40,334 bases of DNA from the sequence record PQ850595.1. One strand, given 5' to 3'. Below are positions 3,433 to 5,450 of this stretch, in pieces (position 1 is the stretch's first letter; each line of letters starts with the position of its first letter). Below the pieces are notes generated by a model. It searched no databases, was not told where the DNA came from, and was given only the letters and a program-made list of their open reading frames with translations. Position numbers and translations under genes: made by a program. Source of the DNA: Escherichia phage AnnaIndermaur_Bas104.

Positions 3433-3600
3433 TCTCACAGTGTACGGACCCAAAGTTCCCCCATAGGGGTCCCTAAAGCCCAGCCAATCACCTTGAGTCA
3501 ACTTTCAGTTGACTTTGAGGGTCCCTAAGGGTTGGGGTTGGTCCTTTGGGTTTGTCTTTGAGTGTTTCGTTGTGTCCCTATCTGTTACAACCTCCTAAAG
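3433..3600. repeat. terminal repeat (single collapsed copy) / concatemer junction between genome right and left ends
   Basis: starts TCTCACAGTGTACGGACC..., homologous to the T7 160-bp terminal repeat; right-end sequence precedes it and left-end promoters follow; exact TR limits in this phage are not determinable from one copy. Confidence 0.6.
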
Positions 3601-3707
3601 TCACCTCCTAAAGTCACCTCCTAAAGTCACCTCCTAAAGTCACCTCCTAAAGTCACCTCCTAAAGTCACCTCCTAAAGTCACCTCCTAAAGTCACCTCCT
3701 AAAGTCA
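3591..3707. repeat. perfect tandem array, 9 x 13 bp (CCTCCTAAAGTCA)
   Basis: read directly; T7 has only degenerate CCTAAAG-containing copies here. Confidence 0.9.
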
Positions 3708-3777: not shown

Positions 3778-3801
3778 CTAAAGACCAGCCTAAAGACCAG
3801 C
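3778..3801. repeat. 2 x 12 bp tandem repeat (CTAAAGACCAGC)
   Basis: read directly. Confidence 0.7.
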
Positions 3802-3849
3802 CTAAAGCCTATCCCATAGATGCCTTGTTGTTATCTATAAAGAGATACC

Positions 3850-3888
3850 CTTTAATCATTGTCTTTAATCATTGTCTTTAATCATTGT
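3850..3888. repeat. 3 x 13 bp tandem repeat (CTTTAATCATTGT) abutting phiOL
   Basis: read directly; single copy in T7 as recalled. Confidence 0.85.
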
Positions 3889-3891
3889 CTT

Positions 3892-3914
3892 TAATACGAC
3901 TCACTATAGAGAGA
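3892..3914 (+). promoter_or_regulatory. T7 RNAP promoter phiOL (left-end, secondary origin region)
   Basis: TAATACGACTCACTATAGAGAGA. Confidence 0.75.
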
Positions 3915-3934
3915 CTACTTAAAGAGAACTTAAA

Positions 3935-3953
3935 AGAGAGAGAGAGAGAGAGA
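3935..3953. repeat. (AG)n dinucleotide microsatellite, ~9.5 units
   Basis: agagagagagagagagaga read directly. Confidence 0.85.
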
Positions 3954-3978
3954 AATTAAAGTTTTTAAAAAAAGAGTA

Positions 3979-4007
3979 TTGACTTAAAGAGTCCTAGGGG
4001 TTACTAT
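3979..4007 (+). promoter_or_regulatory. host sigma70 early promoter A1
   Basis: TTGACT -35, 17-bp spacer, TACTAT -10; position and flanks as T7 A1. Confidence 0.75.
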
Positions 4008-4104
4008 TCATCTCGTCAACGGGACAACGGCCCAAAGCCACTCCCTGAGATACCGGAGTCAACCGGATAAGTAGGCAGCCTGTAAGCCATACGAAAAACA
4101 GGTA

Positions 4105-4134
4105 TTGACAACACGCAGTAACATGCAGTAAGAT
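4105..4134 (+). promoter_or_regulatory. host sigma70 early promoter A2
   Basis: TTGACA -35, 18-bp spacer, TAAGAT -10. Confidence 0.75.
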
Positions 4135-4212
4135 ACACAGCGTCAATCGGTAGCACACGGTGTCTTCTAGGTGACTTAAGCGCACCACGGCACATAAGGT
4201 GAAACAAAATGG

Positions 4213-4241
4213 TTGACAACATGCAGTAAACACGGTATGAT
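4213..4241 (+). promoter_or_regulatory. host sigma70 early promoter A3
   Basis: TTGACA -35, 17-bp spacer, TATGAT -10. Confidence 0.75.
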
Positions 4242-4338
4242 GTACCACATGAAACGACAGTGAGTCACCACACTGAAAGGTGATGCGGTCTAACGAAACC
4301 TGACCAAAGACGCTCTTTAACAATCTGGTAAATAGTAG

Positions 4339-4626
4339 GGATAGTGTCGTGATAGGCCAACTAACTTAAGGTAACTATCATGAAGACATTAACGCGAAAA
4401 GATATACTAGAAGCACTCAAAGGTGTAGCGATAGATGCACAATGTGTTCGGGTTAAAGTGTTAGATTATACCAATAATCCGCTTGCCCCTGAAAAAGTAG
4501 CATACAGTATCACATACAAGGAGTTTGGTGTAAGCAGGAAGGTGGTCTACTACCCGAATACTGTAGGTTTTCAATTCGTAAGATAAAGATAGCGCTGGCA
4601 TTAGCCGGCCTATCACGACACTATCC
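4339..4626 (+). mobile_element. 288-bp cassette bounded by perfect 20-bp terminal inverted repeats, carrying one 68-aa ORF; possible TAG flanking duplication
   Basis: GGATAGTGTCGTGATAGGCC at 4339-4358 is the exact reverse complement of GGCCTATCACGACACTATCC at 4607-4626; TAG on both flanks; T7 as recalled has no sequence between GGTAAATAG and CTCTTGAGTGCATGAC. Confidence 0.6.
4380..4586 (+). CDS. hypothetical protein, 68 aa (cargo of the inverted-repeat cassette)
   Basis: intact ORF with ATG and TAA; uses AUA, CUA, AGG, AGA, CGG codons that are rare in the flanking T7-like genes; no recognisable homolog from memory. Confidence 0.55.
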   Translation: MKTLTRKDILEALKGVAIDAQCVRVKVLDYTNNPLAPEKVAYSITYKEFGVSRKVVYYPNTVGFQFVR

Positions 4627-4629
4627 TAG

Positions 4630-4700
4630 CTCTTGAGTGCATGACTAGCGGATAACTCAAGGGTATCGCAAGATGCCCTTTATGATATCCACTAACAACA
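4630..4700 (+). promoter_or_regulatory. RNase III processing hairpin R0.3 (approximate limits)
   Basis: CTCTTGAGTGCATGACTAGCGGATAACTCAAGGG... imperfect hairpin conserved with the T7 R0.3 site. Confidence 0.5.
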
Positions 4701-4717
4701 CTATGAGGTAACACAAG

Positions 4718-5065
4718 ATGGCTATGTTCAACACTACTTACAGCAACGTTTTCGACTACGCTTACGAAATGCTGAAAGAAAACATCCGTTATGATGACAT
4801 CCGCAGAATTGACGACCTGCACGATGCTATTCATATGGCTGCCGATGATGCGGTCCCTCACTACTATAATGACATCTTTAGTGTAATGGCAAGCGATGGC
4901 ATTGATTTTGAATTTGAGGACTCTGGTCTTATGCCGAACACCAAGGACGTAACCCGCATTCTACAGGCTCGCATCTATGAGCAACTCACTAGCGACCTTT
5001 GGGCAGACGCTGAGGACTTACTGAACGAGTACCTTGAGGAAGTCGAGGAAGAGGAAGAAGAGTAA
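4718..5065 (+). CDS. ocr: Ocr anti-restriction protein (T7 gp0.3 homolog), 115 aa
   Basis: [29 protein letters not shown]... matches T7 Ocr; acidic, poly-Glu C-terminus. Confidence 0.9.
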
Positions 5066-5217
5066 TGACTAATAGCACGCAATATGGTCTGACCGCTCAA
5101 ACTGTGCTGTTCTATAGTGACATGGTGCGCTGCGGGTTTGATTGGTCGCTCGCAATGGCACACCTTAAGGAACTGTACGAAAACAACAAGGCAATAGCTT
5201 TGGAATCTGCTGAGTGA
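5065..5217 (+). CDS. 0.4: gp0.4 homolog (FtsZ inhibitor in T7), 50 aa
   Basis: [50 protein letters not shown], near-identical to T7 gp0.4; TAATG overlap with ocr stop. Confidence 0.8.
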   Translation: MTNSTQYGLTAQTVLFYSDMVRCGFDWSLAMAHLKELYENNKAIALESAE

Positions 5218-5279
5218 TAGACTAAAGGTCGCTCCTAGCGAGTGGCCTTTATGATTATCATTCTATGAGGATTAAACGC

Positions 5280-5450
5280 ATGACGACTGGAATCTTTATG
5301 GCAACCGTTGCAGTATTCGTAGCGATGGGATGGCGTAGCACCGCGTTGGAGCGCTCAAAGTTCCTTAAGCAACGTGATGCACTACTAGAGAAGTTTGACT
5401 CTGAGGGGCGCGGTCAGGAAGCTCTGGAGGCAATAAAGTGCTATCGCTAA
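5280..5450 (+). CDS. hypothetical small membrane protein, 56 aa (occupies T7 0.5 position, not homologous)
   Basis: GAGGA RBS 8 nt before ATG at 5280; one predicted TM segment (GIFMATVAVFVAMGW). Confidence 0.5.
   Translation: MTTGIFMATVAVFVAMGWRSTALERSKFLKQRDALLEKFDSEGRGQEALEAIKCYR

Follow-up and report, generated by a model that had tools for sequence, protein, structure and literature searches.

An accessory early gene of a T7-like Escherichia phage and the candidate expression cassette that appears to have carried it

The early transcript of phage T7 is divided into its mRNAs at local hairpins that are RNase III sites, and the 3' hairpin stays on each mRNA. In rrn operons, a boxA lies 5' of the leader strand of a payload-enclosing helix of more than 17 bp that includes the RNase III site; for these operons a model of tethering by boxA and NusB has been put forward (PMC10250234). 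The gamma-proteobacterial BoxA consensus is GYTCTTTAANA (PMC5725501). In early or hyperplastic regions of T4-type phages, variable small ORFs with no assigned function are flanked by an early promoter and a terminator-like stem-loop (PeSL), conserved motifs through which modules appear to be shuffled (PMC2839356, PMC4122927). The locus described here, from Escherichia phage AnnaIndermaur_Bas104 (PQ850595.1), has points of likeness to each of these systems. It was analysed in the window, i.e. the whole stretch of 40,334 nt, which is a circularly permuted T7-like genome carrying terminase, a left-end repeat region, promoters, ocr, 0.4, a 0.7-type kinase and RNA polymerase. The nearest record is Escherichia phage EmilieLinder_Bas103, with 97.4% identity over 6 kb. 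The early region around the gene is laid out as follows.

3979-4007, + strand: sigma-70 promoter A1 equivalent, by consensus scan, collinear with T7 A1 (V01146)
4105-4134, + strand: sigma-70 promoter A2 equivalent, by consensus scan, collinear with T7 A2 (V01146)
4213-4241, + strand: sigma-70 promoter A3 equivalent, by consensus scan, collinear with T7 A3 (V01146)
4380-4586, + strand: 68-aa cargo gene, member of PHROG 16587, ATG to TAA
4630-4690, + strand: resident R0.3-type leader hairpins, directly 3' of the cassette, near-identical in Bas103 and T7
4718-5065, + strand: intact ocr (gene 0.3 homologue), from the Bas103 annotation; PF08684 matches the equivalent genes in related contigs

The A1, A2 and A3 equivalents have 9-11/12 consensus matches and would drive early transcription through the cassette. 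A sequence scan found no terminator-like site between A1-A3 and the ORF. The hairpins at 4630-4690 we take to be the R0.3 RNase III-site region of the T7 map. A weak sigma-70-like match (TTAACA-17-GATAGT, 9/12) at 4317-4345 overlaps the boxA and 5' arm described below and is probably due to chance. Farther to the left, 5' of the promoters, the left end contains perfect tandem repeats at 3590-3707 (13-nt unit ACCTCCTAAAGTC, 9.1 copies), 3778-3807 (12-nt unit, 2.5 copies) and 3850-3895 (13-nt unit CTTTAATCATTGT, 3.5 copies), and these are followed at about 3893-3953 by the T7-type promoter-like sequence TAATACGACTCACTATAG and a (GA)n run.

The gene lies in an insertion that was delimited by comparison with Bas103 and T7. 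On its left is the leader CGCTCTTTAACAATCTGGTAAATAG and on its right are the CTCTTGAGTG... hairpins preceding ocr, and its parts follow the order boxA, 5' arm, leader with Shine-Dalgarno sequence, ORF, GC hairpin and 3' arm.

4312-4323, + strand: boxA GCTCTTTAACAA of the resident T7-type leader, at the same place in T7 and Bas103, 15 nt 5' of the arm
4336-4629, + strand: cassette insertion of 294 bp, from alignment with Bas103 and T7, which both lack it, and from megablast flank limits
4339-4358, + strand: 5' arm GGATAGTGTCGTGATAGGCC, one strand of the predicted long-range helix; the repeat extends imperfectly to 4364
4359-4379, + strand: conserved leader AACTAAC..AAGGTAACTATC with Shine-Dalgarno sequence at 4368-4372, shared by 28 cassettes whose cargo ORFs are unrelated
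4588-4609, + strand: GATAG motif (4588-4592) and hairpin GCTGGC-ATTA-GCCGGC (4594-4609), abutting the 3' arm
4607-4626, + strand: 3' arm GGCCTATCACGACACTATCC, the other strand of the predicted long-range helix; the repeat begins imperfectly at 4601

The boxA fits the consensus GYTCTTTAANA. The two arms are the core of a 26-nt inverted repeat (4339-4364 and 4601-4626) that is 92% complementary and includes 20 bp of perfect match. They are of the GATAGTGTCG type, as in the cassettes of L024, L029 and L031. The trinucleotide TAG stands at 4333-4335 and again at 4627-4629, and the left side has an extra copy so that the left junction reads TAG TAG GGATAG. In donor-like cassettes (e.g. L029) the 3' arm is followed by TAGCTCTTTAACAA, and the T7-type leader has AAATAGCTCTTGAG. 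Judged from these sequences, the right junction would fall within the 8 nt that they share, TAGCTCTT (4627-4634), and this position would account for the missing second boxA here. The 3' arm was considered as a T7 promoter (ACGAC..ACTAT) and rejected as a chance likeness, since two central bases are missing.

The GC hairpin has the same shape in every cassette examined, with a varying stem sequence and a stability of -6 to -13 kcal/mol. The cassette contains four copies of the motif GATAG/CTATC, one within the 5' arm (4347-4351), one before the ATG (4375-4379), one before the GC hairpin (4588-4592) and one within the 3' arm (4610-4614), and cassettes carrying unrelated cargo have kept it in the form GRTAG. 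With these copies, either end of the mRNA could fold into a different local hairpin, e.g. once the long helix has been cleaved. Elsewhere in the early region, the end of gene 0.4 and the start of the R0.5-type hairpin (window 5212-5262; L001 1400-1455) read GAGTGATAGRCT. The cassette 5' arm shares a 9-nt identity, TGATAGGCT, with the end of gene 0.4 and the R0.5 lower stem; the identity may be fortuitous, or it may reflect where the arm came from.

Arm-only searches of public contigs returned phage contigs with the same flanks around quite different ORFs. Matches to the 5' module were obtained in 147 phage records, the majority from SP6-, K1E- and PhiM1-type phages and their relatives in Klebsiella, Proteus and Edwardsiella. 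At least nine different small cargos have these flanks in SP6, K1E, PhiM1-like and other Autographiviridae, SP6 gene 0.2 being one of the genes so bracketed. Across 28 cassettes from phage and metagenome contigs, the cargo belongs to at least eight PHROGs besides 16587, with no function assigned. Every cassette examined belongs to the early region, is sense-oriented and has its own conserved ribosome-binding site, and a boxA is found upstream of every cassette in the other genomes. Copies that precede ocr consist of boxA GCTCTTTAACAA, 5' arm, ACTAAC..AAGGTnACTATC-ATG, ORF, GC hairpin and 3' arm, and most of them end with another boxA. K1E (L037 1663-2240) and vB_EcoP_D (L038 4689-5380) carry tandem cassettes with gp2.5 and gp2.8 directly 5' of ocr. 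Each tandem cassette has its own covarying arms and is preceded by a boxA, with boxA copies between the two. An additional copy of the 5' arm is present in vB_EcoP_D at 5119. In the 43.9-kb IMG/VR contig L030, the cassette at 1988-2310 contains a 43-aa ORF resembling Rmf (ribosome modulation factor) and a second small ORF; the match of the former to Pfam RMF (E = 6e-6, 26.6 bits) is just under the 27.9 cut-off.

Whether the arms act as DNA or as RNA can be judged from their pattern of change. If the insertion were a MITE-like element, the inverted repeats would be terminal repeats served by a transposase in trans, TAG would be the target duplication and the ORF a passenger. Its outline agrees with such an element, since the 26-nt inverted repeat bounds the 294-bp insertion and TAG flanks it left and right, the same ends enclose different cargo in other genomes, and the flanking boxA copies resemble a direct repeat. 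The arm, however, occurs once in the window and not at all in 185,579 bacterial and archaeal genomes, and no transposase is present. The apparent direct repeat is a predicted boxA that is also present in uninserted genomes, and its left and right copies differ. An extra conserved hairpin abuts the 3' arm, and the placement of the cassettes, with ribosome-binding sites of their own, is uniformly early and sense-oriented.

Among 19 distinct arm pairs, 99.2% of the alignment cells form standard pairs, and 6/19 arm positions have changed on both sides. None of 500 shuffles reached any of the covariation measures, and controls in which the partner was slid paired at 24-44%. Departures from Watson-Crick pairing number 26 cells, and in 23 of these the transcribed strand has G·U; one arm position is U·G in most sequences. 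A G·U pair on the sense strand is A·C on the other strand, which argues for an RNA helix and against transposon ends. A transposable origin is highly improbable. RNAalifold, applied to nine full cassettes, predicts the long-range helix together with the adjacent GC hairpin. In the transcript 4305-4660 a 21-bp helix is found in both the MFE and the centroid folds (z = -2.96), and across cassettes the helix is 19-21 bp long and encloses the gene. No Rfam family was found within 3800-5400. Pairing and covariation together point to an RNA leader-trailer helix, and by analogy with rrn operons this helix is probably an RNase III site.

The cassette can be set beside each of the described systems. 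Like an rrn operon, it has a consensus boxA just 5' of a payload-enclosing long-range helix, here about 20 bp in length, and it would be transcribed by host RNA polymerase. It differs in that the payload is an mRNA of 40-90 codons (170-310 nt) rather than rRNA, and in that the helix is 19-21 bp instead of the 27-44 bp of rrn. No boxB or boxC was identified in the cassettes. The T7 RNase III sites (R0.3, R0.5, R1, R1.1, R1.3) likewise separate cistrons of the host-polymerase early transcript, and the placement is related, as the R0.3 hairpins directly follow the cassette and the R0.5 hairpin directly precedes those copies of the gene that have no arms. The T7 sites, however, are local hairpins with an internal loop, whereas the cassette strands are about 250 nt apart and bracket a gene. 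PeSLs share the arrangement of conserved flanks around variable small early ORFs; the cassette has at least nine cargos, and the same cargo gene is found at two genomic sites (before ocr and after 0.4). In contrast to PeSLs, the cassette contains neither a promoter, apart from the weak 9/12 match, nor a terminator-like site, and has boxA and a long-range helix instead. The phage families also differ, the cassettes occurring in Autographiviridae and PeSLs in T4-type phages.

Because a boxA and an enclosing helix of more than 17 bp occur together as in rrn, Nus-assisted transcription followed by RNase III excision may be proposed. Host RNA polymerase starting at A1-A3 would transcribe boxA and then the cassette. 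BoxA would recruit NusB/NusE, giving protection from Rho and, in the manner of rrn operons, holding the 5' arm. On emergence of the 3' arm the leader-trailer helix would form, and host RNase III would then cut it to release a monocistronic mRNA with its 3' end capped by the GC hairpin. In keeping with excision, copies of the gene that have no arms sit right behind a resident RNase III-type hairpin.

The original prediction had placed a 68-aa ORF of foreign origin and deviant codon usage at 4380-4586, downstream of A1-A3 and upstream of ocr, and each of these statements held. It did not extend to the flanking inverted repeat as a component of a widespread RNA-level cassette. The ORF runs from ATG to TAA on the + strand with a Shine-Dalgarno sequence, AAGGT, at 4368-4372, 7 nt 5' of the ATG. 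The promoter matches lie 5' of it and ocr (4718-5065) lies 3'. In comparisons with nine relatives its dN/dS is 0.02-0.12 at dS up to >1, indicating that it is protein-coding. The ORF is a real, conserved small phage gene. The listed rare codons are all present (ATA twice, CTA, AGG, AGA, CGG and CGA), and the 7/68 rare codons compare with 2.3 expected from the large genes of the phage (binomial P = 0.009). A CAI-like index of 0.587 is lower than that of 99% of same-sized windows of the large genes, and the GC content is 39% vs 48% for the window. Since the insertion is missing from Bas103 and T7, and since GC content and codon use deviate, the data support the view that the gene is foreign cargo in the early region transcribed by host RNA polymerase, where it is the first cistron in this genome.

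A related claim, that no homologue could be recognised, was wrong. The protein matches the profile of PHROG 16587 with E = 1.1e-18, residues 4-68 aligning with positions 2-70 of 70. This is an uncharacterised phage family for which the family profile, searched against a set of 5.8 billion proteins, gave 102 homologues, all stand-alone and 45-82 aa long. Tblastn found matches in 55 phage records, with identities of 97% in Cedecea phage Yanou, about 60% in Klebsiella przondoviruses and 36% in ORF24 of Vibrio phage ICP1; phages 121Q, A73 and phiNV3 also carry the gene. A scan of 185,579 genomes of bacteria and archaea gave no copy, which marks the family as one of virulent phages. Literature searches by accessions, PHROG id and peptide strings found nothing on the protein.

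The position of the gene is variable. In most T7-like relatives, a 97-99% identical protein is encoded third, after 0.4. In the commonest close variant, P0001 (position taken from 24 metagenomic contigs), as well as in Yanou, the gene follows 0.3 and 0.4 directly behind an R0.5-type hairpin and has no inverted repeat, and the cassette leader is kept in the copies located after 0.4. Other T7- and T3-like contigs have the gene before ocr or a SAM lyase with the inverted repeat, as here. In the Klebsiella przondoviruses it is found just before the 0.7-type kinase, and in phages of 88 kb and 142 kb it is inside long arrays of small unannotated ORFs. The location after 0.4 in most relatives means that being the first gene is not conserved. 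The expectation that this would be the first phage protein made after DNA entry applies to the present genome, where the gene is the first cistron, and not to the relatives in which it is third. The constant positional feature is the early/ORFan region. Some T7-like relatives with the gene have a SAM lyase, either besides ocr (L010, 1883-2341) or in place of it (L023, 904-1398), indicating that the anti-restriction slot adjoining the cassette is itself modular.

ICP1 ORF24 is 36% identical over the full length, and the TM-score between the models is 0.84. No boxA/arm cassette surrounds ORF24 as far as examined. In several ICP1 isolates (e.g. HQ641354.1 9183-9323, MH310934.1 9101-9241) the ORF24 homologue is unannotated and matches residues 23-68 only, as if the locus were variable and the allele there had been shortened or had received a different N-terminus.

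The AlphaFold2 model of the protein (m14a0b4448b27, built with 62 homologues) has a pLDDT of 82.8. It predicts a helix at 6-14 and strands at 21-29, 40-48, 51-58 and 63-66, i.e. a helix on a four-stranded sheet that would be a generic fold of cystatin/PepSY/VirB8-like type. The protein differs from cystatin, PepSY and VirB8-NTF2-like folds in having four strands, 3-16% identity and no QxVxG or PW motifs. The modelled resemblance is therefore at the level of a common small fold rather than demonstrated homology. As had been expected, there is no transmembrane segment (maximum Kyte-Doolittle 19-residue mean 0.95), and hydrophobic segments are absent from the family as a whole. The protein has a pI of 9.56 and a net charge of +5, and is predicted to be cytoplasmic and basic. 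From Vibrio to Escherichia phages, residues that are invariant or nearly so cluster in DYxNNPLAPE and YYPNTVGFQ. These conserved loops join strands 1-2 and 3-4, which puts both at the same end of the sheet, where by analogy with cystatin-type inhibitors we infer that they could form a binding wedge.

Of the profile and structure searches that had been recommended, the profile search gave the PHROG 16587 match and nothing usable in Pfam, PDB sequences or PADLOC, and the structure search found ICP1 ORF24 and no characterised protein among viral models. For the window protein there was no Pfam match even at E <= 10, and neither the protein nor the family profile had a usable match among PDB sequences or in PADLOC. 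Pfam DUF2790 has weak matches in 11/62 family members (best E = 0.0013) and none in the window protein. Foldseek against the viral models of BFVD returned ICP1 ORF24 alone.

Several candidate identities were rejected. Phmmer matches to intimin/invasin-type proteins of 1,200-3,900 aa suggested a Big_1 Ig-like domain of about 90 residues. They span 25-48 residues per repeat and are restricted to a short strand-turn-strand motif of these giant inverse autotransporter repeats, and for this reason Big_1 homology was rejected. An Ocr/ArdA-type DNA mimic is excluded since the protein is basic; there is also no Pfam ocr/ArdA match. The anti-BREX protein OrbA of ICP1 was considered because the ICP1 homologue is in a variable early region. 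OrbA is reported to have no homologues outside ICP1 (PMC11580459), whereas PHROG 16587 is widespread and its ICP1 member is ORF24; the rejection is by reported distribution.

The positive charge also bears on whether the protein might bind RNA or another nucleic acid, acting on phage or host transcripts (processing, stability, translation) instead of inhibiting a host protein. The charge is conserved (median pI of the family 9.4, with 94% of members above pI 8), as are the surface aromatics Y30, Y42, Y57, Y58 and F64, and the gene is associated with an RNA-structured cassette. We consider this function improbable. In the reading that we prefer, of which this is the weaker part, the two near-invariant hairpin loops would form a wedge to bind and block a conserved host protein, be it a defence enzyme or a housekeeping factor.

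Position next to ocr had led to the hypothesis of an anti-defence factor, which would be made first after DNA entry and would neutralise immunity (R-M, BREX, CBASS, retron, TA) before the remaining genome enters. The gene is the first cistron in this genome, is accessory and patchily distributed, stands beside ocr or SAM lyase in several backbones, and belongs to a family limited to virulent phages; in K1E-type phages cassettes are stacked directly 5' of ocr. Position is nevertheless the whole of this evidence, and it varies, the gene being found after 0.4, by the kinase or in ORFan arrays. No similarity to any characterised anti-defence protein was found (Pfam, PDB sequences, PADLOC, BFVD, and OrbA by report), and the basic protein is no DNA mimic. 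Phages of Vibrio, Pseudomonas, Klebsiella and Escherichia have nearly the same loops, which is unusual for an arms-race factor; a conserved host target would explain this no less well than a defence system that evolves fast. The Rmf-like ribosome factor in one sister cassette is cargo of the host-takeover type, and the sequence is missing from the searched supplements of a large phage accessory-gene screen. An anti-defence role is possible but unsupported, and we regard it as doubtful.

Taken together, the evidence somewhat favours the view that the gene is a genuine accessory early gene of the lytic-phage-only family PHROG 16587 that arrived as cargo of a self-contained early-expression cassette. 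A broader proposal is put forward more speculatively and could well be wrong. Autographiviridae may hold unrecognised portable rrn-like cassettes for early genes that are boxA-tethered, Nus-protected, RNase III-excised and stabilised by a hairpin, that stack in tandem, and that pass from one phage subfamily to another through recombination at boxA and arms, and the cargo in this case may be a new loop-wedge inhibitor of a host enzyme or defence protein.

If the cassette is a Nus/RNase III element, it shows how T7- and SP6-type phages add small early genes with their neighbours undisturbed, and, if true, it extends the rrn leader-trailer/boxA mechanism to mRNAs. The order boxA, arm, leader ... 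hairpin, arm would then also provide a simple sequence signature by which genomes and metagenomes can be mined for early accessory genes, among which functions in host takeover and anti-defence are most abundant. The cargo family described here is widespread in lytic phages of Escherichia, Klebsiella, Vibrio and Pseudomonas, strongly constrained and uncharacterised, and Bas104 and Bas103 form a natural isogenic pair that makes it tractable for functional work.
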